NCBI GenBank assembly: GCA_934660965.1
Contig: CAKUIM010000007.1
Location: 1,532 to 65,531 of the forward strand
Length of the DNA stretch: 64,000 nt
Origin: an uncultured Oscillospiraceae bacterium
GTDB lineage: Bacteria; Bacillota; Clostridia; Oscillospirales; Oscillospiraceae
Direction: 5' to 3'
A program made the translations under genes and the position numbers. Of this stretch, positions 48,945 through 63,091 are shown in pieces. Within the stretch, counting starts at the first letter, position 1. Every line of letters begins with the position of its first letter. The notes beneath the pieces are model-generated. The model ran no database searches. It had not been told where the DNA came from and worked only from the letters and a program-made list of their open reading frames with translations.

Positions 48945-50978
48945 ATGAAATACGCCCGCCTCTTCGCGCCCCTGCAGGTCAACTCCATGAAGCTGAAAAA
49001 CCGCATCTGCATGACCGCCATCGACCTCAACTACTGTCCCGACGACGGCGGCGCCGTCTCTGAGCGGCTCAAGGCCTTCTACTTCCGCCGGGCGGAGGGG
49101 GGCGCGGGGCTGCTGACCATCGGCGGCTGCCGCATCGACGAGCACGGCGCGGGCTATGACATGGACTTTGTAAGCATCGCCGACGACCGCTACATTCCCG
49201 GCCACCGGGAGCTCACCGACGGCATCCACGCCCGGGGGGCCAAGGTCTCCCTCCAACTCTACCACGGCGGGCGCTACGTGGCCGCCCGGGGCCTGCGCGA
49301 TGGGAACGTCCCCTTTGCCCCCTCCCCGGTCTACTCCACCTTCACCCACGAAACCGCCCCGGAAATGTCCCGGGAGGACATCCAGGCCGTCATCGCCTCC
49401 ACCGCCGCCGCAGCCGCGCGGGCCAAATCCGCCGGGTACGACGCCGTGGAGCTGCTGGGCTCCGCCGGCTATCTCATCTGCCAGTTCCTCTCGCCGCTGA
49501 CCAACCTGCGCACCGACGAGTACGGCGGCAGCCTCGAAAACCGCCTGCGCTTCCCCCGGCAGCTCATCGCCGCGGTGCGCGCCGCCGTGGGGCCGGACTT
49601 CCCCCTCATCATGCGCATGGCGGGCAACGACTTCATGCCCGGCTCCAACACCCTGCCCGACACCGTGGGCTTTTCCCGGGAGTATGAGAAGTGCGGCATT
49701 GACATGCTCAGCGTCACCGGCGGCTGGCACGAGACCCGCGTCCCCCAGCTGCCCGGCGAGGTGCCCGACACCTGCTACGCCTACCTTGCCCAGGCCATCC
49801 GGGAGGCGGTGTCCATCCCCGTCATTGCCGCCAACCGCATCCGCACCCCCTCCGAGGCGGAGACCGTTCTGGCCCTTGGCCAGGCGGACTGCGTGGGCAT
49901 GTGCCGCACTCTGCTCGCCGACCCCGACTGGCCCCGCAAGGCCATGGCCGGGGAGGAGACGGAAATCCGCCCCTGCGTGGGCTGCAACCAGGGCTGCCTT
50001 GCCGCCACCTTCTTCTGCAAGCCGGTGCAGTGCCTGGTCAATGCCGACGCCGGGCGGGAGGCTGCCCCCGCCGCCCCCCGTGCCGGGGCGGGCAAGTCAC
50101 TGCTGGTCATCGGCGGCGGCCCTGCCGGACTGGAGGCCGCCCTGCGCGCCGCCCGCTCTGGCTGGCGAACCGAGCTGTGGGAGAGCAGTCCCCGCCTGGG
50201 CGGCCAGCTCCGCCTGGCCGGCGCGGCCCCGGGAAAAGAGGATTTTCTCGCCCTTATTCCCTACTACGAGACCATGCTGAAACAATACGGCGTCACTGTG
50301 CGCCTGGGCACGGAGGCCGACGCCGCCGCCATCGCCGCCGCCGGGTTCGACGCGGTGATCGTGGCCGCCGGCGCCCATCCCCGCGCCCTTCCCATGGACC
50401 TTCCCGGCCCGGACATCGTCTCCGCCTGGGACGTGCTCTCCGGCGCTGTCATCCCCGGAAAGCACGTGGTGGTGCTGGGCGGCGGCGCTGTGGGCTGCGA
50501 AACGGCCCAGTATCTCGCCCGCCAGGGCGCCCTCAACACCGAAAAGCTCTTCTTCCTGTCCGTCCACCACGCCGAGCCTCCCCAGCGCCTGGAGCAAATG
50601 CTCAACCATAGCGCCCGCACCGTCTCCATTGTGGAGGTGGCCCCCAAGGTGGGCAGCGGCTTCGACCCGGGCTGCGCCTGGCCGGTGCTCAAGGACCTCA
50701 AGCGCCTGGGGGTGGCGCAGTACACCCGGGCCTCCATTGTCTCCGCCGCAGACGGCTGCGTCACCGTGGAGCACGGCCCCGAGGGGGAGCGCCAGCGCCT
50801 TACCCTCCCCTGCGATACCCTCATCCAGGCCGTGGGCTCGGTGAGCAATACCGCACTCATGGCTTCCCTGGGTGAGGCGGGCATTCCCGCCGTGGCCATC
50901 GGGGACTGCGCCAAGACCGGCCGCGTGCTGGACGCCGTCCGCGCCGCTGCCGACGCCGTGGCCGCCCTCCCGGTCTGA
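48945..50978 (+). CDS. OYE-like FMN oxidoreductase fused to an FAD/NAD(P)-binding domain (2,4-dienoyl-CoA reductase / enoate reductase family)
   Basis: 677 aa. ...LKNRICMTAI..., QLYHGGRY, a Cys cluster CVGCNQGCLAATFFCKPVQC, then the Rossmann motifs LVIGGGPAGLEAA and VVVLGGGAVGCE. Confidence 0.8.
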   Translation: MKYARLFAPLQVNSMKLKNRICMTAIDLNYCPDDGGAVSERLKAFYFRRAEGGAGLLTIGGCRIDEHGAGYDMDFVSIADDRYIPGHRELTDGIHARGAKVSLQLYHGGRYVAARGLRDGNVPFAPSPVYSTFTHETAPEMSREDIQAVIASTAAAAARAKSAGYDAVELLGSAGYLICQFLSPLTNLRTDEYGGSLENRLRFPRQLIAAVRAAVGPDFPLIMRMAGNDFMPGSNTLPDTVGFSREYEKCGIDMLSVTGGWHETRVPQLPGEVPDTCYAYLAQAIREAVSIPVIAANRIRTPSEAETVLALGQADCVGMCRTLLADPDWPRKAMAGEETEIRPCVGCNQGCLAATFFCKPVQCLVNADAGREAAPAAPRAGAGKSLLVIGGGPAGLEAALRAARSGWRTELWESSPRLGGQLRLAGAAPGKEDFLALIPYYETMLKQYGVTVRLGTEADAAAIAAAGFDAVIVAAGAHPRALPMDLPGPDIVSAWDVLSGAVIPGKHVVVLGGGAVGCETAQYLARQGALNTEKLFFLSVHHAEPPQRLEQMLNHSARTVSIVEVAPKVGSGFDPGCAWPVLKDLKRLGVAQYTRASIVSAADGCVTVEHGPEGERQRLTLPCDTLIQAVGSVSNTALMASLGEAGIPAVAIGDCAKTGRVLDAVRAAADAVAALPV

Positions 50979-51064
50979 TTTCTCGCATAAAAATAGCGGG
51001 GGCAGACGCTCAAGGCCTTCCTTGTATAAGGGGAGGCCGCCCGCAAATCCCCTCCCCCACGCAA

Positions 51065-51096
51065 AAAGCGCCCGAACCATGCGGTTCGGGCGCTTT
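51065..51096. terminator. Bidirectional terminator hairpin (twin of 29350-29381)
   Basis: AAAGCGCCCGAACC-ATG-CGGTTCGGGCGCTTT followed by CCTTTTCCCCTTTTT. Lies between convergent genes. Confidence 0.8.
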
Positions 51097-51109: not shown

Positions 51110-51967
51110 TTACTTCTTGTACTCCGCGAGGGACCGGCGGGTGATGCCCAGCATCTCCCGGGCCTCGGCGGCGGTGGCGGGCTCGCGGCCCACCAGGCGG
51201 CCAAGGGCGGCGGCCCGCTCCACCAGCTGCACGTTGGTGGCCTTCACGCCGCGCTCCAGGTAGAGGTTGTCCTCCAGGCCCACGCGCACGCCGTCGGCGC
51301 CCAGGGCAAGGCCGGTGAGGAGCATGGGCAGATGATCCTTGCCGATGCCGGTGACGCTCCAGGTCCAGCCCTCGGGCAGCTTGCTGTGGAGGTACTGCAA
51401 ATTCTCAACGCTGCCCTCCATAGCGCCCAGCACACCCAGCACGAACTGCACGTGGCAGGGGGTCTTGAGCACGCCCTTCTTCGCATAGGCGATGGCGTTG
51501 CCCAGCATGCCGTAGTCAAAGACCTCGATCTCGGGCTTGATGTCCAGCTCCTGGGTGAGCTTGCCGCACTCCACCAGAAAATCGGGGCTGTTCTCGAAGA
51601 TGAGGCCCAGGGACCAGTTGAAGGTGCCCGCGTCGTAGGAGCACACCTCGGGGCGCAGGGCCTTGAGGTGGGCAAGGCGCTCCTCGGTGACGTAGGAGCC
51701 GCCGGAGGTGGTCAGATTCACAATGATGTCCACCCCGGCCTTCTCGGTGGCCTCCTTCACGGCCTCGAAGGCATCCCGGAAGTACCCGGCGTCCATGGTG
51801 GGCTTGCCGTCCTTGTCGTGGACGTGGATGTGGACCATAGAGGCGCCGGCCTTGGCCACCGCCACGGTCTCTTCGGCGATCTCCTCGGCGGTGATGGGAA
51901 TGTAGGGGGAGAGCTCCTTAGAGCCGGCGGTGCCGGTGATGGCGGCGGAAATGAGCAGTTTTTTCAT
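51110..51967 (-). CDS. Beta-keto acid cleavage enzyme (BKACE / DUF849; 3-keto-5-aminohexanoate cleavage enzyme family)
   Basis: 285 aa. ISAAITGT, HIHVHD (two Zn His), PEIEVFD, GVRVGLEDNLY (Zn Glu). Overall colinear with Kce as I remember it. Substrate not assignable from sequence. Confidence 0.85.
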   Translation of the reverse strand: MKKLLISAAITGTAGSKELSPYIPITAEEIAEETVAVAKAGASMVHIHVHDKDGKPTMDAGYFRDAFEAVKEATEKAGVDIIVNLTTSGGSYVTEERLAHLKALRPEVCSYDAGTFNWSLGLIFENSPDFLVECGKLTQELDIKPEIEVFDYGMLGNAIAYAKKGVLKTPCHVQFVLGVLGAMEGSVENLQYLHSKLPEGWTWSVTGIGKDHLPMLLTGLALGADGVRVGLEDNLYLERGVKATNVQLVERAAALGRLVGREPATAAEAREMLGITRRSLAEYKK

Positions 51968-52001
51968 GATCTTGTCTCCTTTTGGGTTTCTCTGTGCGCC
52001 C

Positions 52002-53210
52002 TTAGCGGCGCAGGTTCTCGATGAGGGTGGTGACGCCGTGGCCGCCGCCGCAGCAGGAGGAGAACAGGCCGTAACGGCCGCCCCGACGCTCCAGCTCCTT
52101 CATGGCGAACAGGCAGATCCGGGCACCGGAAGCGCCGTTGGGATGGCCGAAGGCGATGGCGCCGCCGTTGGGGTTCCAGTTGGCCTGGTCGATCTTCTCG
52201 CCGCTCTGGTGCTCCATCTCCTTGATGACGGACAGGTTCTGGGCGGCGAACGCCTCGTTGCACTCGAACACGTCCAGGTCGCTCACCTTCAGGCCCGCGC
52301 GCTTGAGGGCCAGCAGGTTGGAGTAAGCAGGGCCGATGCCCATCAGGCGGGGCTCCACGCCGTAATCGGCGCCGCACACCCACCGGGCATAGGGCTCGTA
52401 GCCCAGCTCCTTCGCCTTCTCGGCGGTCATCATCAGCACAAACGCAGCGCCGTCGTTCCGGCCGGAGGCGTTGCCAGCGGTGGTCACGCCGCCTTCACGG
52501 ACAGCGCGCAGCTTGGTGAGGCCCTCCATGGTGGTCTCGCCGCGGACGTGCTCGTCCTCCGCGAAAATCTTGTCCGGAGCCTTCTTGCCGCCCTTGATGG
52601 TGATGGGCGCGATCTCATCCTTGAAGTAGCCCTTGGCAATGGCGCTGGCGGCACGCTGCTGGCTGCGCAGAGCGAACTCGTCGCACTCCTCGCGGGTGAT
52701 GCCCCACTTGGCCGCCATGGTGTCGGAAACCTCGATCATGCTGATGTTCTGCTCGGGAGTGGGGGCCAGCTTGGAGGGGATGGGCAGAGGCGGAATAGCC
52801 TTGTAGGGCTGGATGGAGGTGGGGAACTTCACCACCATCTGGCTATATGCCTCCATGCCGCCGGCGATCATCACGTCGGCCTCGCCTGCCAGCATCTTCC
52901 ACGCCGCGTGGTTGATGGAGTCGATGGCGCTTCCGCACTGCATCTCAACGTAGGACGCGGAGGTCTCCAGCGGAAGCCCCGCGGCCAGCACCACATAACG
53001 GGCCGGGCCGCCAGCCTGGGCATCGCAGAAGGCGGAGCCGCAGAACAGCGAGTCCACCTTGCCGCCCCGCTCGTAAATCTTGGAGCGCTCCACCAGGGCC
53101 TTCACCGTCATGGCGCCCAGGTCGGAGGCATAGATGTCCCGCAGGCTGCCGCCCATCCGGCCAAAGCCCGTGCGCATGCCGTCTACAAATACGATCTCTC
53201 GCTTTTCCAT
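52002..53210 (-). CDS. Acetyl-CoA C-acetyltransferase (thiolase II family)
   Basis: 402 aa. ...VEMQCGSAIDSI (active Cys), NASGRNDGAA, NPNGGAIAFGHPNGASG, CCGGGHG. Confidence 0.88.
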   Translation of the reverse strand: MEKREIVFVDGMRTGFGRMGGSLRDIYASDLGAMTVKALVERSKIYERGGKVDSLFCGSAFCDAQAGGPARYVVLAAGLPLETSASYVEMQCGSAIDSINHAAWKMLAGEADVMIAGGMEAYSQMVVKFPTSIQPYKAIPPLPIPSKLAPTPEQNISMIEVSDTMAAKWGITREECDEFALRSQQRAASAIAKGYFKDEIAPITIKGGKKAPDKIFAEDEHVRGETTMEGLTKLRAVREGGVTTAGNASGRNDGAAFVLMMTAEKAKELGYEPYARWVCGADYGVEPRLMGIGPAYSNLLALKRAGLKVSDLDVFECNEAFAAQNLSVIKEMEHQSGEKIDQANWNPNGGAIAFGHPNGASGARICLFAMKELERRGGRYGLFSSCCGGGHGVTTLIENLRR

Positions 53211-53275
53211 CTTTCTTGTTCCTTTCCCGCCGGGCCGTCTCCTGCCCGGATTTGTTATTTTTATAACAATGCGTC

Positions 53276-53304
53276 TTGACTTTTCTTGAATTTTTTGTTA
53301 AAAT
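53276..53304 (+). promoter_or_regulatory. Sigma-A type promoter for the sigma-54 activator gene
   Basis: TTGACT, 17 nt, TAAAAT. Confidence 0.5.
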
Positions 53305-53352
53305 AGTCTGTAATTGTGAGTGTTTTGCCTGATTTCCAAGGAGGTCTTTGCT

Positions 53353-54753
<1,401 letters not shown>

Positions 54754-54771
54754 TCGGCCCGGGGTCGGAGA

Positions 54772-54813
54772 AGCTCTGCCGCCTGCGGTATGCGGGCGGC
54801 AGAGCTCTTTTAT
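54772..54813 (+). terminator. Rho-independent terminator after the activator gene
   Basis: AGCTCTGCCGCC, an 11-nt loop, GGCGGCAGAGCT, followed by CTTTTAT. Confidence 0.7.
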
Positions 54814-54832
54814 GCCGCCGGCCGGGCCCCGG

Positions 54833-55726
54833 TCAGTGTGGCAGAACGGGGTTGGGCCCCAGGCGGTTGCCCTTCTCGTCATAGAGATAGAAGCCCGCGC
54901 CGGACTTTTTCCCGCAGAAGCCCGCCTGCACCATCTTGCGCAGCAGCGGGGCCGGACGGTACTTGGAGTCGCCCAGCTGGCTGTGAAGGACCTCCATCAC
55001 CGCCAGCTCCACGTCGATGCCCGCCATGTCGACGAGCTCCAGGGGACCCATGGGATGGTTGCAGCCGAACTTCATGCCGTTGTCCACATCCTCCACGGCG
55101 CCGATCCCCTCGTCCACAATCTGGATGGCTTCGTTGATCATGGGGTCGAGCATACGGTTAACAATAAAGCCGGGCATGTCCTTGGATACAATCATCACCT
55201 TGCCAAGCTTCGCCCCCACGGCGCGGGCCGTTTCCAGCGTCTCCTTGGAGGTGCGCAGGCCGCAGATAATTTCCAGCAGCTTCATAGCCGGCACCGGTGA
55301 GAAGAAATGCATGCCCACAAACCGCTCCGGATGGCTCACTGCACCGGCAAGGGCGGTGAGGGAGAGCGACGACGTGTTGGACGCGATCACCGCCTCCGCC
55401 GGGCAGATTTCCGCCACGGCAGAGAGCACGGCGCGCTTGGCCTGCTCGTTTTCATAGATGGCCTCGATGACAAGCTCGGCGTGGGCGCAGCGGGAGAGGT
55501 CAGCTGCGGCAGTCAGGCGGGCAAGGCAGCCCGCCCGCTCCTCGGCGGTCATGGCCCCCTTATCTACCCGGCGCTGAAGGCGGCCGGCAATGCCCGTCAC
55601 CGCCCGCTGGAGGGCGGCGGTGTTTGTATCGTTGAGGGTCACTTCAAAGCCGCTCTGCAGGGCCACCTGAGCGATGCCGCTGCCCATCAGGCCGCTGCCG
55701 ATGACAAAAATGTGGTTCACTTCCAT
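54833..55726 (-). CDS. hbd: 3-hydroxybutyryl-CoA dehydrogenase
   Basis: Start trimmed to [20 protein letters not shown] after [50 protein letters not shown]. Confidence 0.88.
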
Positions 55727-55739
55727 GCGCTGCACCTCC

Positions 55740-56723
55740 TCAAATCAACTTATGGTAGCGCAGCAGCTCCAAAAGGCCCTTGTCCCGGAAGGCCTGAAGC
55801 TCAGCGTTGTCCCGTCCCGTCCCGGGCTCCCGCCGGGACATGATGTCCAGAATCTCGGCGGGCCAGTCGGTCTCAAAGTGCTTGTGGACCTCCTCGGGCC
55901 AGCGGTCCCAGGAGCACAGCTCGCCCAGCCATTTCTCGCTGGACTGGCCCATGGGGCCGCACATGGTGTTTTTGAAGCCGCCGTCGCCGCCGGTGAGCTG
56001 ATAGACCATATAGGGACCCATCAGGGCGTAGCGCAGGCCGGGGCCGAAGGTAAAGGCGGTGTCCAAATCCTCCAGGCTGCATACGCCGCTGGAGACAATC
56101 TTGGCACTCTCCCGGAACAGGGCAATCATCAATCGGGTGCCCACATAGCCCGGGGAGTTCTTGCGCAGCACCACCGGCTTTTTGCCAACGGCGCGGAAGA
56201 AGGTCAGGGCCTGATTGAGATAGTTCTCCCCCACCTTGGGGCTGATGACGATCTCCACCAGGGGCAGCAGGTAGACCGGCAGATAGGGGTGCGCGCCGAT
56301 GACCCGCTCGGGGTGAGAGGCGTCCCGGGCAATCTCGCTGATCATGATGCCCGAGGTGCTGGAGGTGATAACGGCGTCGTCGCGGCACTCGGCCTCGATG
56401 CCCGCCAGGATGGTGCGCTTGAGCTCCAGATTCTCCGGGCCGTTCTCCAGAATGAGGTCGGCCCCCTCCACGGCGGCGCGCATGACGGTTGTGTACACCG
56501 GCAGGCCCTCAAGCTCCGCGCGCTGTGCGGCGGTGATGGCACCGTTTTCCTCAAAGAAGGCAAGGCCCTGGGAAATCAGCCCCTTGGCACGGTCCAGCGC
56601 CTGGGGCGCGGTGTCGTACAGGGTAATTTCCCGCACGCCGTGGATGAGCAGATGGGTGGCCCAGCCCGCGCCGATGAGGCCCGAGCCGATGATGCCGACG
56701 TGGTAATCCTTATAGTCTTTCAT
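55740..56723 (-). CDS. 3-hydroxyacyl-CoA-dehydrogenase-fold enzyme of the L-carnitine dehydrogenase (LcdH)/lambda-crystallin type
   Basis: 327 aa. [21 protein letters not shown], ...[12 protein letters not shown]..., [32 protein letters not shown], and a C-terminal extension unlike Hbd. Confidence 0.65.
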
Positions 56724-56735
56724 GGATAGTCCCCC

Positions 56736-57440
56736 TTAAATGCCCAGATAGGCGTTGCGCAGCTGCTCATCCGCCAGCAGCTGGTCGGAGGTGCCGCTCA
56801 TCACGTTCTGGCCGATCTCAATAACGTAGGCCCGGTTTGCGATCTCCAGGGAGGACATGACGTTCTGCTCCACCAGGAGGATGGTCATACCCGTCTTGTT
56901 GAGCTCCACCAGGGAGTCGAAGATGTCACCCACCACAATGGGTGCAAGACCCAGGGACGGCTCGTCGAGCATGAGAATCTCCGGGCACTGCATCAGACCC
57001 CGGGCGATGGCGCACATCTGCTGCTCGCCGCCGGACATGGAGTTTGCCATCTGGTTGCGCCGCTCATAGAGCTTGGGGAACATGGTAAAGCAGAAGTCCA
57101 GGTTCTCCTTGCGGCGCTTGCGGGCCTCCGGCAGGTAGGAGCCCACGAGAAGGTTGTCGTACACGCTTAAATAGGGGAAGAGTTTGCGCCCCTCGGGCAC
57201 CTGGATGATGCCCTTTTTCACCCGCTCGTAAGCGGGCATCTTGGAGATGTCCTCCCCCTTGAACTCGATGCTGCCGTTCATGAGGCGGGTGGTGCCGGAA
57301 ACGGTATTGATGGTGGTGGTCTTGCCCGCGCCGTTGTTGCCCAGAAGGGCCACGATCTCTCCCTCTTTTACTTCCAGGGAGACGCCGCGCAGCGCTTCCG
57401 AGCGGCCGTAATTCACATGGATATCATTTACTTTCAGCAT
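56736..57440 (-). CDS. ABC transporter ATP-binding protein (LivF-like)
   Basis: Trimmed to MLKVNDIHVNYGRSEAL. GNNGAGKTT, MSGGEQQMCAIARGL, LMLDEPSLGLAP. Overlaps the upstream ATPase gene by 17 nt. Confidence 0.88.
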   Translation of the reverse strand: MLKVNDIHVNYGRSEALRGVSLEVKEGEIVALLGNNGAGKTTTINTVSGTTRLMNGSIEFKGEDISKMPAYERVKKGIIQVPEGRKLFPYLSVYDNLLVGSYLPEARKRRKENLDFCFTMFPKLYERRNQMANSMSGGEQQMCAIARGLMQCPEILMLDEPSLGLAPIVVGDIFDSLVELNKTGMTILLVEQNVMSSLEIANRAYVIEIGQNVMSGTSDQLLADEQLRNAYLGI

Positions 57441-58170
57441 GCTTTTTCTCCCCAAAATACGATTGAATGACCAGCGGGTTCTGTGCCACCTCCGCCGGGG
57501 TGCCCTCGGCAATGAGCCTGCCCTGGTTGAGCACATACATCCGGTCGGAGATGTTCATGATGACCCGCATGACGTGTTCGATGATGATGACGGTGACGCC
57601 GCTTGCCCGGATGTCCTGCACCAGCTTCATAAAGGCCGGGTGCTCCTTGGGGTTGACGCCGGCTGTGACCTCGTCGAGCAATATGAGCTTGGGCTCGGTG
57701 GCCAGGGCCTTGGCGACCTCCATGCGCTTCATCTGGGTCAGGGTCAGGTTGTTGCCGCGCACGTCCTTGATGTCATAGAGGCCGGTGAACTTGAGCACCT
57801 CCTCGGCCTTGCGCTGGGCGTCCTCCTTCTTGGGGCAGCGCACGAAGGCACCCACCATCACGTTTGCCAGCACCGTCATGTTGGTAAAGGGCTGCACCAG
57901 CTGATAGGTCCGGCCGATGCCCAGCTTGCACACCTGGCTCGCCTTCTTGTTCTGGATTTCCTCGCCGTTGAAGATGATCTTGCCGGAGGTCACGGGGAGG
58001 GCGCCGGAGAGCATGTTGAACAGGGTAGTCTTGCCCGCGCCGTTGGCGCCGATGATGCCCAGGATCTCCCCTTCGTTTGCGTGGATGGTGATGTCCTCAT
58101 TGGCGGTCAGGCCGCCGAACTTTTTGGTCACATGCTGGACATCCAGGATGACCTTCTGATTGTCAGCCAT
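57424..58170 (-). CDS. ABC transporter ATP-binding protein (LivG-like)
   Basis: 248 aa. GANGAGKTTLFN, ...LTQMKRMEVAKALATEPKLILLDEVTAG. Confidence 0.88.
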   Translation of the reverse strand: MADNQKVILDVQHVTKKFGGLTANEDITIHANEGEILGIIGANGAGKTTLFNMLSGALPVTSGKIIFNGEEIQNKKASQVCKLGIGRTYQLVQPFTNMTVLANVMVGAFVRCPKKEDAQRKAEEVLKFTGLYDIKDVRGNNLTLTQMKRMEVAKALATEPKLILLDEVTAGVNPKEHPAFMKLVQDIRASGVTVIIIEHVMRVIMNISDRMYVLNQGRLIAEGTPAEVAQNPLVIQSYFGEKKHAESK

Positions 58171-59182
58171 TGCCGCTGCCTCCCTTCACTGCCTGGGTAG
58201 TCTTTTTCCGGCTGCGCAGGGCGGCAATGCGCTCGCCCAGCCAGGGGAACACGCCGCGGGGCATGAAATACACCACCAGCATCAGAATCGCGCCGTAGAT
58301 GGCCGTGGAAAGGCCCGCGAAGGAGGTGCCCAGGGCAGTGCGCAGCGACTCGTTGATGGGGTAGAGCACCAGGGTGCCGAACACGGGGCCCCAGACGGTG
58401 TCGATGCCGCCCACCACCGCGTAGAGCATGATCTCGATGGAGAAGCCGTAGCTCAAAACGCGGGTGGGATCCAGGAACATGATGAACATCACGTAGAAGC
58501 CGCCGCCCATGGCGGACAGGGCCGCGCTGATGAACTGGGCCTTGAGCTTGTAGAACATGGTGTCCACGCCCAGGGCCTCCGCCGCATTCTGGTTGGTATT
58601 GATGGCGGAAAAGTAGTAGCCGGTGCGGGTGTTCTTGATGCGGATGGAAAGGCCGATGACAAACAGCAGCAGCACCGCGATGATATAGTAATAGCTCACC
58701 TTGCTGTCAAACTGCATGTTGGCAAAGCCGCCCCGCCAGGGGATGCGCAGGCCCATGGACGCGCCGGTCTCGTAGCCGAAAAGCTTCTGCTCGTTGAGGA
58801 TGATGATCTGGAACACGAACAGCAGTGCCACGGTGGACAGGGTGTAGTAGGAGCCCTGGAGCTTGAAGCAGGGGTAGCTGAGCAGCACGGACAGCACGCC
58901 GGCGATGAGCGCCGCGATGATAAGCCCCAGCCAGGGGGAGATGCCGTTCTGCTTGAAGAGCAGGCCTGTAATATAGCCGCCGATGCCGATGTACACGCCG
59001 TTGCCCATGGCGAAGCGGCCGATGAAGCCGCCCAGGATGTTCCAGCTGGCCGCCAGGAAGGTGAACATCAGCGTCATAACCAGGGTGTGGACGGTATACT
59101 GGGTCTTGACAAACAGGGGGATGATGAGCACAGCAACCGCAAACAGCCCCAGCCATTTATACTGGTCAAAAATTTTCTTCAC
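58163..59182 (-). CDS. Branched-chain-amino-acid-type ABC permease (LivM-like)
   Basis: 339 aa multi-TM. Position and composition typical of the HAAT family. Confidence 0.8.
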   Translation of the reverse strand: MKKIFDQYKWLGLFAVAVLIIPLFVKTQYTVHTLVMTLMFTFLAASWNILGGFIGRFAMGNGVYIGIGGYITGLLFKQNGISPWLGLIIAALIAGVLSVLLSYPCFKLQGSYYTLSTVALLFVFQIIILNEQKLFGYETGASMGLRIPWRGGFANMQFDSKVSYYYIIAVLLLFVIGLSIRIKNTRTGYYFSAINTNQNAAEALGVDTMFYKLKAQFISAALSAMGGGFYVMFIMFLDPTRVLSYGFSIEIMLYAVVGGIDTVWGPVFGTLVLYPINESLRTALGTSFAGLSTAIYGAILMLVVYFMPRGVFPWLGERIAALRSRKKTTQAVKGGSGNG

Positions 59183-59212
59183 TCGAATGCCCTCGCTTTC
59201 TCTCGGCGCCCA

Positions 59213-60097
59213 TCAGCTGGTCTCCCGGCCCAGAATGCCGGACGGCCGGAAGAGCAGGATCAGGATAAACAGCACGAACACCAGCAGCGACGCATAGGCG
59301 TCCGTCCACAAAATGCCGCCGAACTTTTCGATGAGGCCCACGATCAGGCCGCCCAGCAGCGCGCCGGGGACGCTCCCCTTGCCGCCCAGGACCACGATGA
59401 TGAAGCACTTGGTGCCGAAGGCGCTGCCCACCGTAGGCGACACCGCGGAGTTGGGCACCAGCAGCGAGCCGGAAACGCCCACCAGGCCCAGGCCGATGCC
59501 GAAGGCCAGGCTGTAGATGCTTTTATGGTTAATGCCCATGAGGGAGGCCACGTGCCGGTTCTGGGCGGTCGCCCGGAGGGCGCGGCCAAACTCTGTGCGC
59601 TGAATGACGATGTACAGGATGATGGTGCAGGCCAGGGCGATGGCAAAGGAGATCAGCCGGGGGACGGACACGATCATGTTGCCCAGCTCAATGGTCTTGC
59701 TGGTGTAGCGGGTCTGGACCGCCAGAATATTGGAGGAGAAAATTACAGTGGCCATGTTGGACAGGAAAATGCCAAGGCCCGAGGTAAAGAGCAGGATGGA
59801 CAGCGGCTCGCGGGACTCGTCCTTGTCCAGCATGCGGTTAAAGACAAAGCGCTGCAGGCAGTAGCCCACGGCAAACATAATAGGACCGGTGATGAAGATG
59901 GAAAGATAGGGGTCGATGCCGAAGTTGATGACGGACAAAAAGGCGATGTACATGCTCACCATCAAAAACTCGCCATGGGCCCAGTTGACGATGCGCATGA
60001 CGCCGAAGGCCAGGGACAGGCCCACCGCGATGGTGGAGTACACGCCGCCTACCATGATCCCGTCGATCAGGGTTTGGAAAAACAGCGATAAAGTCAT
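59213..60097 (-). CDS. Branched-chain-amino-acid-type ABC permease (LivH-like)
   Basis: 294 aa, MTLSLFFQTLIDGIMVGGVYSTIAVGLSLAFGVMRIVNWAHGEF, the classic LivH N-terminus. Confidence 0.85.
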   Translation of the reverse strand: MTLSLFFQTLIDGIMVGGVYSTIAVGLSLAFGVMRIVNWAHGEFLMVSMYIAFLSVINFGIDPYLSIFITGPIMFAVGYCLQRFVFNRMLDKDESREPLSILLFTSGLGIFLSNMATVIFSSNILAVQTRYTSKTIELGNMIVSVPRLISFAIALACTIILYIVIQRTEFGRALRATAQNRHVASLMGINHKSIYSLAFGIGLGLVGVSGSLLVPNSAVSPTVGSAFGTKCFIIVVLGGKGSVPGALLGGLIVGLIEKFGGILWTDAYASLLVFVLFILILLFRPSGILGRETS

Positions 60098-60184
60098 ATA
60101 CCGGAATCCTCCGTTCTCTAATTAAGGGGGGTGGGGCCGCCCCGTGGGGCGGCCCCGGATCACAGCTTCTTTTCTTTCGGGGGC

Positions 60185-61504
60185 TCAGCGGTCAGCGTAA
60201 GCGGGGATGGGGAACACCACGGGGCTCTCGTCCAAGGGGAAGATGATCTTCCAGCGGCCGCCCAGCACCTGGGCGTACTGCATGCCGGACTTGGAGTTCT
60301 GGTTGTAGCGGCCGTCAAAGTCCTCGTACTTGATGCCGCCGAAGGTGGCGTGGAACATCAGGGCGCGGTCGCCCACGGGGATGTCGGTCTCGTCGATGGC
60401 GGTGGCAATGGCCTCGCGGTCAGCGCTGCCGGCCCGGGCAATGGCCTCCAGCAGGGCATACATGCCCATCCAGCCGTTGGCGTAGGGCTCGTTGGCGGTG
60501 GTGTTGCCGGTCTCCTTGACAAAGCGGGCACACCACTCCTTGGCCTCGTCGCTCATGGCGTCCTCGTCATAGATCCAGGAGCCGGAGACCATGATGTACT
60601 CGGCAGCCTCGCCGGCCTGGCTGGTGTAGTCGTCGCCCAGGAAGCCGCCGCCGTAGGCCAGAACGGGGATGTCCACCTTGTACTCCTTCATCTGGCGGGT
60701 GAAGAGCAGGGCGTCGTTGAGGAACATAACGGGGATGATGAGCTCGGCGTCGGTCTGCTTGATCTTGTTGAGGACGCTGGAGAGATCGGTGGAGTTGTTG
60801 GCAAAGGACTCACCGAACACCACCTCGGCGCCGGCGGCGGGCAGAATGCTGTCCTTGAAGGTATTGTAGGCGCCCTGGCCGTAGTCAGTGCCCTCGTAGA
60901 GGATGGCCACCTTGGTGATGGGGGTGCCGCGCAGCTCGCCCAGCCACTGCAGGAGCTTGACATAGGTGGACGCGCCGTCCTTATCGCCCAGGTTGGAGCG
61001 GAAGACGTAGTTGCTGTCCTCGGAGAGGATGACGTCGGACACGGCGTTGGTGACCATGAAGGGGGTCTTGTACTTGATGGCGATGGGGGCGATGGCGGCG
61101 GCGGTGCCGCTGTTGTAGGTACCGATGATGGCGGAGACCTTCTCGTCGTTGATCAGGCGCTCGGCTTCGGTCACGCCTGTGTCGGCAACGCCGGCGGTGT
61201 CACCCTTCACCAGCTCGATCTTCATGCCGTTGAGGGTGTCGCCGTAGTGGTTCATAAAGTCCTCCAGAGCATGCTCATAGCCCACCATCTGGCTCTCGCC
61301 GAAGTAGGAGCTGGAGCCGGAGAAGGGGAGCAGGACGCCGATCTTGACGACCTTTTCCTCATCGCCGCCGCCCTGGGGAGCCTGGGACTCGGTGCCCGCG
61401 TTGGAGGGGGCAGGGGTCTGGGTCTCTTTGGAGCCAGTACCGGCGCAGGCCGCCAGGGACAGGCACATCGCCAGGGCAAGGATCAGTGCAGTCAGCTTTT
61501 TCAT
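60185..61504 (-). CDS. Type-1 periplasmic-binding-fold ABC substrate-binding lipoprotein (LivJ/K family); ligand unknown
   Basis: Trimmed to MKKLTALILALAMCLSLAACAG (lipobox) after AAGGAGG. ...KIGVLLPFSGSSSYFG..., IIGTYNSG. Confidence 0.85.
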   Translation of the reverse strand: MKKLTALILALAMCLSLAACAGTGSKETQTPAPSNAGTESQAPQGGGDEEKVVKIGVLLPFSGSSSYFGESQMVGYEHALEDFMNHYGDTLNGMKIELVKGDTAGVADTGVTEAERLINDEKVSAIIGTYNSGTAAAIAPIAIKYKTPFMVTNAVSDVILSEDSNYVFRSNLGDKDGASTYVKLLQWLGELRGTPITKVAILYEGTDYGQGAYNTFKDSILPAAGAEVVFGESFANNSTDLSSVLNKIKQTDAELIIPVMFLNDALLFTRQMKEYKVDIPVLAYGGGFLGDDYTSQAGEAAEYIMVSGSWIYDEDAMSDEAKEWCARFVKETGNTTANEPYANGWMGMYALLEAIARAGSADREAIATAIDETDIPVGDRALMFHATFGGIKYEDFDGRYNQNSKSGMQYAQVLGGRWKIIFPLDESPVVFPIPAYADR

Positions 61505-61590
61505 GGGAATCCTCCTTAAATTTTTATGCATACAGGGCTCTCGCCCGGTTTGCCTTTTGATAGACGCACACAGGAGCGCCGCAGGGGATT

Positions 61591-62631
61591 TTATACGCCG
61601 TTTTCCAGCAGGATGTCGAAGAAGGGCAGGGCCTCCTCCGGCGTCCACACCTGGGTGTGGGCCTGGGCCAGCCTGACCAGGCCCACCACCATGTCGTTGT
61701 AGGGGGTGGCGATGCCGCACTCCCGGCCCGCCCGGCACACCTGGCCGTTGATGAAGTCGATTTCGCAGGGGCGGCCCTTCTCCAGGTCCTGGAGCATGCT
61801 GGCCTTGAGCGCCCGGTGCTTGGTGCCCCAGAGCTGATGATAGTAGGCCAGCTTGTCCTCCACGGTCTCGCCGGGGCGGATCTCCCGCTCCTCATAGTCG
61901 TTGCCGTCCACCACGGTGAGCTTCACGCCCTTGCCGTGGGCCACCCGCACGCACTCGTCGCCGATGCGCGCCAGGGCCAGCATGGCATTCTCCCGGTCCA
62001 GCACGCCGCCGTAGTCGCAGCCCAGGGCGGCGGACATGCCGCTGGCGGTGGCGTTGATGAGCACCTTGGTCCAGCGGGTGCCCAGGAGCTTGTCGGTGAT
62101 GTCGCACCGGCCCGCCTGGAAGAGGAATTGCTGCACCGCCTTGAGGCGAGGGGTCACCTCGCCATTGCACTCGCCCACCTCGGTGAGCATACCGGTGGCC
62201 ATGTAGTCGCCGCCGGAGGTGCAGCGCACCACGCCGGGGGCCTCCCAGGTGGCGCCGAAGAGGACGATGCCGCCCATGGTGCGCTCCTGCCCCACAATCT
62301 CGGCCACTAGCATCTCGGGGATGCCGTTTTGCAGGGTGCAGACGATGCTGTTCTCGTGGAGGTGACCCTCCAGCTGGGCAAGGGCCTGGCGGGTACCCGT
62401 CTGCTTGCACAGCAGGAACACCAGGTCGTAGGTCTCGGTGAGCTCGTCGGGGGTCAGTGCGGAGACCGGCACGCTCAGGTCAAGCCCGCCTGTGATGGTG
62501 GCGCCCCGGGTGCGCAGGGCCTCCACATGGGGGATGTAGGTGTCGATCAGATCGATCTGCACGCCGCTGCGGGTCAGCAGCGCGCCCAGCACCGTTCCGA
62601 TGGAGCCTGCGCCCATAATTGCAGCCTTCAT
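61591..62631 (-). CDS. Ketopantoate-reductase (PanE/ApbA) family NAD(P)-dependent 2-oxo/hydroxy-acid oxidoreductase
   Basis: 346 aa. MKAAIMGAGSIGTVLG Rossmann start, ...TLQNGI..., TRWTKVLINA, SMLQDLEKGRPCEIDFINGQV. Confidence 0.7.
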   Translation of the reverse strand: MKAAIMGAGSIGTVLGALLTRSGVQIDLIDTYIPHVEALRTRGATITGGLDLSVPVSALTPDELTETYDLVFLLCKQTGTRQALAQLEGHLHENSIVCTLQNGIPEMLVAEIVGQERTMGGIVLFGATWEAPGVVRCTSGGDYMATGMLTEVGECNGEVTPRLKAVQQFLFQAGRCDITDKLLGTRWTKVLINATASGMSAALGCDYGGVLDRENAMLALARIGDECVRVAHGKGVKLTVVDGNDYEEREIRPGETVEDKLAYYHQLWGTKHRALKASMLQDLEKGRPCEIDFINGQVCRAGRECGIATPYNDMVVGLVRLAQAHTQVWTPEEALPFFDILLENGV

Positions 62632-62744
62632 ATCGGTTCTTTTTCCTCCTCTTTCGTGTCGCTGTTTGTCTCGGCATCACTCGCCGGGAGGGCTGCCGCA
62701 GCCGCCCGCCGGGGTGATGCTCTGCCCTCTATTATTGCAATGGG

Positions 62745-62760
62745 CGTGCCAGCTTTTTCC
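62745..62760 (-). promoter_or_regulatory. Sigma-54 (-24/-12) promoter of the PanE-like/Liv/LcdH-like/hbd operon
   Basis: Minus strand reads TGGCACGCCCATTGCA, an exact match to TGGCAC-N5-TTGCA. About 113 nt upstream of ATG 62631. An EBP with GAFTGA is encoded 8 kb away in the same island. Confidence 0.8.
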
Positions 62761-62827
62761 GCCCCTTGAATTTCTCACAATTTCTTTGCATTCTAAGTCA
62801 GATTTTCCGTCAAAATCTTCACAACTC

Positions 62828-62887
62828 GTCTAACGATTAGACAGTTGCGCATAAACGCTTAGACAGTTGTAGACAGTTACTGTCTAA
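62828..62887. promoter_or_regulatory. Upstream activator sequence candidates (repeated TTAGACAG motifs and palindromes)
   Basis: GTCTAACGATTAGAC palindrome (62828-62842). TTAGACAGTT at 62837 and 62859, GTAGACAGTT at 62869. Perfect palindrome TAGACAGT-T-ACTGTCTA at 62870-62886. All lie 70-130 nt upstream of the -24 element. Confidence 0.6.
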
Positions 62888-63091
62888 CCTGGCTCCGGTT
62901 GGAGATTTTTTGTTTTTCTGTTTTTTCCCGGCGTTTTTTCTGCTATAATAGCCGCAAAGAGCCCCTGCGCGCCCCCTGTCCGGGCCGGCTGCGGCGCTTC
63001 TGCCCTGTCAAACGTTTCGCCGCCCCCATCCCGGGCGGCTTGCCGGCGCCTTGTGCCCCCTGCGCAAGGCCGCCAAGGAAAGGAAGATACC

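Follow-up and report, generated by a model that had tools for sequence, protein, structure and literature searches.

A predicted sigma-54 promoter and candidate activator array ahead of a transporter–dehydrogenase operon in an uncultured gut Oscillospiraceae bacterium

Which protein switches on the transporter and dehydrogenase operon of this gut bacterium, and through which DNA sites? The 64-kb stretch analysed here (the window), from an uncultured Oscillospiraceae genome of 2.07 Mb and 63% GC, holds an eight-gene operon on the minus strand, the gene for a PAS-type enhancer-binding protein (EBP) at the 3′ end of that operon and, ahead of the operon, a segment that an earlier note read as a sigma-54 promoter with upstream activator sites. 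This reading is upheld by an exact −24/−12 element, by the repeats upstream of it, by an intact EBP and by the presence in the genome of rpoN, which any sigma-54 reading requires (C12; PF04552, 201 bits; RpoN box SRRTVAKYR).

The operon and its promoter

The first gene of the operon encodes an ApbA/PanE-like reductase and is followed by one for a Peripla_BP_6 binding protein. The remaining genes encode two Liv-type BPD_transp_2 permeases, two ABC ATPases and two dehydrogenases of the 3HCDH type, one a 327-aa carnitine-dehydrogenase-like protein and the other a 297-aa 3-hydroxybutyryl-CoA dehydrogenase. The promoter sits in the 460-bp divergent intergenic region that separates the operon (minus strand) from mutL (plus strand, from about 63092). 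The features on this side of the locus are:

54833–62631, minus strand: target operon of eight genes, first ATG at 62631
62632–62725, minus strand: predicted 5′ leader, about 94 nt long and containing a GC-rich hairpin
62736–62751, minus strand: −24/−12 sigma-54 promoter TGGCACGCCCATTGCA, with GG at 62749–50, GC at 62737–38 and a predicted transcription start site (TSS) at about 62725
62752–62826, minus strand: A/T-tract-rich spacer of 75 bp running from enhancer to promoter, 38% GC against 63% GC for the genome
62827–62887, minus strand: upstream activator array of five heptamer half-sites TGTCTAA/TTAGACA, a candidate enhancer

The promoter sequence TGGCACGCCCATTGCA matches TGGCAC-N5-TTGCW exactly, and precisely one helical turn separates its GG and GC dinucleotides. 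By chance, 0.05 exact matches would be expected in 64 kb (5 of 100 shuffles), and this is the sole match within the window even when one mismatch is allowed, although the one-mismatch pattern alone is not significant (2.3 expected per 64-kb window). The element is intergenic, points at the operon and lies 105 nt upstream of the ATG of the ApbA-like first gene. The earlier note had correctly assigned it to the minus strand but had given its position as 62760–62745, which is 9 nt off; the start of the span examined at that time, 62745, cuts into the −12 element. With the corrected coordinates the predicted TSS, placed 12 nt downstream of the GC at 62737–38, moves from near 62735 to about 62725.

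All 16 nt of the promoter are invariant across 13 strain contigs, and the element is conserved in the syntenic ortholog L027 as CTGGCATGAAAATTGCA. We found no sigma-70-like promoter on the operon strand of the 460-bp intergenic region. On sequence grounds we regard 62736–62751 as a real sigma-54 promoter that is both well formed and conserved. An Rfam scan of the leader and the intergenic region gave no match at threshold. The leader hairpin (GCATCAC...GTGATGC, GC-rich, 62680–62720, minus strand) is missing from the L027 leader. On the other side of the intergenic region, mutL is likely to have its own promoter, with a perfect extended −10 TGCTATAAT at 62941–62949 (plus strand), about 35–55 bp beyond the array, and a terminator-like hairpin and T-run at 62883–62903 (plus strand) lie just ahead of this extended −10.

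The upstream array and its variation among strains

The array consists of five half-sites, with centres numbered from the predicted TSS, that can be combined into two dyads:

62881–62887, read on the minus strand: H1, TTAGACA, centre −159
62869–62875, read on the minus strand: H2, TGTCTAC, centre −147
62859–62865, read on the minus strand: H3, TGTCTAA, centre −137
62837–62843, read on the minus strand: H4, TGTCTAA, centre −115
62827–62833, read on the minus strand: H5, TTAGACG, centre −105
62870–62886: dyad A (H1 and H2), a perfect 17-bp palindrome TAGACAGTTACTGTCTA, which is TAGACAGT-A-ACTGTCTA
62828–62842: dyad B (H4 and H5), GTCTAA-tcg-TTAGAC (GTCTAACGATTAGAC, which is GTCTAAcgaTTAGAC), centre 85.5 bp from the −24 GG

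Read along the operon strand, the array is TTAGACA-gtaac-TGTCTAc-aac-TGTCTAA-(15 nt)-TGTCTAA-tcg-TTAGACg. The half-sites lie 80–135 bp upstream of the −24 GG, and their successive spacings of 12, 10, 22 and 10 bp are such that none of the five deviates by more than 1.5 bp from a common helical phase. Repeats had previously been reported some 70 to 130 nt upstream, with the third copy forming a perfect 17-bp palindrome; we locate them 77–136 nt upstream of TGGCAC and confirm the palindrome at 62870–62886. The 8-mer TAGACAGT occurs four times within 50 bp (62838–45, 62860–67 and 62870–77, plus strand; 62879–86, minus strand), a count reached in 0 of 100 shuffles, and these copies make up 4 of the 9 in the 2.07-Mb genome.

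Dyads A and B are opposite in polarity (TTAGACA-N5-TGTCTA versus TGTCTAA-N3-TTAGAC). They also differ in spacing, and a rigid dimer that reads one could not read the other. The 16-nt unit CAACTGTCTAA(G/T)CGTT also recurs in the array with a 22-bp period, so that the array can also be read as three dyad-like positions 21–22 bp apart, namely dyad A, H3 with a degenerate partner, and dyad B. The A/T-rich spacer at 62752–62826 is likely to be a looping or bending segment.

Human-gut metagenome samples, Hadza ones among them, repeatedly yield contigs with this locus, and we compared 13 such contigs representing four haplotypes (the window together with loci L019–L026 and L098–L101). Across the 460 nt of intergenic DNA, 19 sites vary. 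Within the array (62827–62887) none of the 35 heptamer core positions varies, versus 7 of the 26 non-core positions (Fisher p = 0.0015). The absence of core variation amid variable flanks points to TGTCTA(A) as the constrained unit. The longer motif proposed in the earlier note, TAGACAGT(N)ACTGTCTA, therefore has to be shortened to the heptamer TGTCTAA/TTAGACA, since some of its positions vary among strains, including the extra AGT/ACT of the 8-mer TAGACAGT.

The non-core positions are about ninefold more variable than the remaining intergenic DNA (7 of 19 SNPs in 26 nt; binomial p = 5e-5). One variant, 62834 G>A, creates the palindrome GTCTAAT-c-ATTAGAC in the array, and another, 62879 T>C in one strain haplotype, breaks the 17-mer palindrome of dyad A. 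A further contig from the same species (L089; OQWE01017802.1, 1359 nt) is without the enhancer and the −24 element, and has mutL-proximal DNA inverted and joined beside the −12 region. It is probably a chimeric assembly; the alternative is a real inversion or deletion.

The candidate activator, its relatives and the sigma-54 network

The only EBP gene on the 81-kb contig is convergent with the operon and lies at its 3′ end, where the following features are found:

53353–54753, plus strand: candidate cognate EBP with PAS, AAA+ (GAFTGA) and HTH_8 domains, recognition helix SRATLYNKLK
53276–53304, plus strand: sigma-70-like promoter of the EBP gene, TTGACT-17-TAAAAT with TG
54772–54806, plus strand: strong hairpin terminator separating the end of the operon from the convergent EBP gene
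51110–53210, minus strand: thiolase–BKACE bicistron, divergent from the EBP gene (thiolase 52002–53210, BKACE 51110–51967)

The EBP is intact, with GAFTGA, Walker A and B and HTH_8 all in place (PF00158, 235 bits). It is encoded 8.4 kb from the promoter, a distance that exceeds that of most such pairs in this genome, and the window offers it no other candidate target, the −24/−12 site upstream of the operon being the only one. The array would most likely be bound by this protein. Its best curated NCBIfam match is PrdR, an identity that we rejected on score (NF041552, 393 bits against a cut-off of 795) and because the target genes are not prd; NifA, NorR and AtoC were rejected too, as all score under their curated cut-offs, and the protein belongs to no curated equivalog. 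A search of 40 relatives returned no ortholog (best 47%), and in 185k species representatives the matches were all generic AAA+ ones of at most 48% identity; relatives in a large protein collection reach at most 63% identity. The C44 paralog in the same genome, 63% identical, could cross-talk.

The genome encodes 18 full-length EBPs and contains 20 strict −24/−12 matches, versus about 1.7 expected from base composition. A slightly relaxed search yields 28 sites. For 24 of them the same contig has an EBP gene no more than 10 kb away (mean 4.3 and maximum 11 in 1000 trials with randomly placed sites), and most sites come with direct or inverted repeats, private to each, between −50 and −190. Sigma-54 is thus used both extensively and locally in this genome. 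Four consensus sites (C15:34821, C19:18141, C19:15290 and C35:4219) have no EBP gene within 10 kb, and contig C18 has an EBP gene and no consensus −24/−12 site that we could find. The genome's sigma-54 network thus appears to be built of private, local modules.

The array fits this pattern. The earlier note had put its motif forward as a means of defining the regulon of the activator, but a genome search revealed no wider regulon: TGTCTAA/TTAGACA clusters, TAGAC-N5-9-GTCTA dyads and GTCTA-N3-8-TAGAC dyads co-occur only at this promoter, and a single TAGAC-N9-GTCTA on C1 is isolated. Because the cluster is unique in the genome, the motif-defined regulon amounts to one operon. A search of 400 other genomes of the order also failed to turn up the composite dyad-plus-promoter pattern. 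Promoter, array and EBP would together form a private, one-promoter regulatory module.

Related loci allow the promoter, the repeats and the recognition helix of the EBP to be set side by side:

Window: reference operon; promoter TGGCACGCCCATTGCA; five TGTCTAA/TTAGACA half-sites; helix SRATLYNKLK
L027: EBP 63% and ApbA-like protein 77%, full synteny; promoter GCTGGCATGAAAATTGCAATA; one dyad, cGTCTAA-ccag-aTAGACA; helix SRATLYNKLK
C44, in-genome paralog: EBP 63%, parallel operon design; promoter TGGCATGGGATTTGCT; TTGACA/ATACAC repeats; helix TRATLYSKLK
L033: EBP 55%; divergent sigma-54 promoters on both strands drive both arms; ACAGTAATGTG twice; helix DRSVLYSKIK
L038: ApbA-like gene 53%, EBP divergent; sigma-54 promoter TGGCACGTCCTTTGC upstream of the ApbA-like gene; TGTCC/TGTCT repeats; helix HRSSLYRKLQ

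L027 provides the one orthologous promoter that we found outside the species. Its recognition helix is identical to that of the window EBP, and its dyad is a counterpart of dyad B, not of dyad A; it lies 74 bp from the −24 GG, versus 85.5 bp for dyad B, a shift of 11.5 bp or about one helical turn. The immediate divergent gene in L027 is Imp-YgjV-like rather than mutL-like. The same helix thus accompanies the same core in L027, and three other helix types accompany other repeats, which suggests that the motif tracks the recognition helix, as it should in a cognate pair, albeit over very few (about four) independent cases. A metagenome scan with the first gene of the operon recovered homologs mostly inside unrelated operons and added a sigma-54 promoter only at L038. 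The paralogous C44 module (locus L036, 1–8423) combines the promoter TTGGCATGGGATTTGCT, an ApbA-like first gene and a convergent EBP gene; upstream are three copies of TTGACA and two of (C/T)ATACAC with a 22-bp period, and the contig reaches no further than 297 nt ahead of the promoter.

The thiolase–BKACE leader has neither a −24/−12 element nor TGTCTAA repeats, in the window or in L027. The earlier note had remarked on both absences in the window and had concluded that the two halves of the island are wired differently, which these leaders support. Since both arms are sigma-54 driven in L033, the split wiring is lineage-specific. The region between the thiolase and EBP genes contains a palindrome, TTGTTAT-tttt-ATAACAA (TTGTTATttttATAACAA, 53254–53271), which overlaps a possible extended −10 for thiolase. 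We considered this palindrome as a second EBP site and rejected it, as it is unrelated to TGTCTAA and is not conserved in L027. An open reading frame at 50097–51080 (minus strand) was likewise set aside as spurious, being without a family match and overlapping a 677-aa gene on the plus strand.

Together the operon and the thiolase–BKACE pair look like an uptake-and-cleavage route that would feed a beta-hydroxy or beta-keto acid into acetoacetate/butyrate metabolism. Relatives of the EBP are recurrently encoded beside operons that combine BKACE, a carnitine-dehydrogenase-like 3HCDH, an ApbA-like reductase, Hbd or thiolase, and an ABC or other transporter (window 51110–56723, L028, L029, L031, L033, L094 and L095). 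This recurrent context may reflect a family of catabolic routes for beta-hydroxy and beta-keto acids under sigma-54 control. A literature search for BKACE operons together with sigma-54 found no paper.

Proposed mechanism, alternatives and known systems

We think it probable that the sigma-54 promoter at 62736–62751 drives the operon (62631 to 54833, minus strand) and that the adjacent EBP is what serves it. RNA polymerase–sigma-54 would form a closed complex at 62736–62751. The PAS-AAA+-HTH_8 activator (53353–54753), made from its own sigma-70-type promoter, would bind the five TGTCTAA/TTAGACA half-sites 80–135 bp upstream of the −24, all of them on the same face of the helix. A signal at the PAS domain would then cause it to assemble into an active oligomer, which may loop over the A/T-rich spacer and would open the promoter with ATP. 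We also offer, as a speculation to which we give little credence, that a single EBP hexamer might be templated one to one by the five heptamers, which share a helical phase and are mixed in polarity (pairs 10–12 bp apart are inverted, direct or everted, and the pattern has a period of about 21–22 bp). Its flexibly tethered HTH domains would then recognise each half-site on its own, whatever the symmetry of the dyads, and the unusually fast turnover between the cores among strains would tune the strength of the enhancer.

The operon might instead be sigma-54 dependent with its array bound by another protein, whether the C44 paralog, a different one of the 18 EBPs, or an unrelated regulator (repressor or activator) that possibly acts for mutL. 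The C44 paralog has a similar HTH (TRATLYSKLK versus SRATLYNKLK) and a parallel operon design, the mutL promoter TGCTATAAT is close to the array, and the four −24/−12 sites distant from any EBP gene indicate that distant wiring occurs. However, the repeats upstream of the C44 promoter differ, the L027 dyad stays with the sigma-54 promoter despite the different divergent gene, and the local EBP is without an alternative candidate target in the window. We consider such a binder unlikely.

It is less probable still that the repeats are non-functional, as products of quasi-palindrome formation or slippage or as a mobile-element remnant, with the EBP acting from solution or from unrecognised sites. 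The clustering of SNPs at non-core positions is what a mutational hotspot would give, and the polarity of the dyads is inconsistent. Against this, the core positions are invariant, the half-sites share a helical phase, the core is kept in a different organism (L027) at a phase-preserving distance, and the genome has no other copies of the kind that a mobile element would leave. Least credible to us is a fortuitous −24/−12 match, with the operon read from a sigma-70-type promoter. One-mismatch patterns do arise by chance in a 64-kb window, but this element is exact, intergenic and correctly oriented, is invariant among strains and conserved in L027, and is accompanied by rpoN and an adjacent EBP; its strand yielded no sigma-70-like site.

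With the adjacent EBP as the preferred activator, the TGTCTAA half-sites become a concrete candidate operator, and the operon a candidate target, for one of 18 uncharacterised sigma-54 activators of a gut bacterium, and the promoter–EBP pair could serve as a biosensor for finding the inducer. The regulatory architecture is of a textbook kind and is not surprising, and this pairing of motif and operon adds to it. At glnAp2, NtrC, and at their UAS (TGT-N10-ACA), NifA and FhlA, bind dyads about 100–150 bp upstream as Fis-type HTH dimers and act through DNA looping. NtrC is a response regulator, which the window EBP is not.

Nie et al. (2019; PMC6615313) cite TGT-N10-12-ACA as a common UAS motif class of the NifA/FhlA type. 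The TGTCTAA half-site fits this class only loosely: as TGT-N11-ACG in the window and as CGT-N12-ACA in L027, dyad B satisfies one half of the TGT/ACA rule each time and does not belong to the class, and dyad A (ACA-N5-TGT) falls outside it. That study reconstructs 39 groups of Clostridiales PAS-type one-component EBP modules and reports Clostridiales EBPs with multiple UAS sites, most of them 100–250 bp upstream of the promoter. As described there, these modules resemble the window in having the target operon adjacent to the gene of its activator (PAS-AAA+-Fis-type HTH), a consensus TTGGCA-N6-TTGC promoter, catabolic or transport targets and multiple UAS. The full text of that paper has no match to 'branched-chain amino acid', 'thiolase' or '3-hydroxybutyryl'.

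At the E. coli norVW promoter, NorR needs three enhancer sites for its oligomer and ATPase (PMC2831303). NorR has a GAF sensor and three like-oriented inverted repeats, whereas the window combines a PAS domain with sites of mixed polarity, one of them with a degenerate partner, in an array known from its sequence. What the two systems share is a set of several close sites ahead of a single sigma-54 promoter, and these sites could plausibly template one hexamer.
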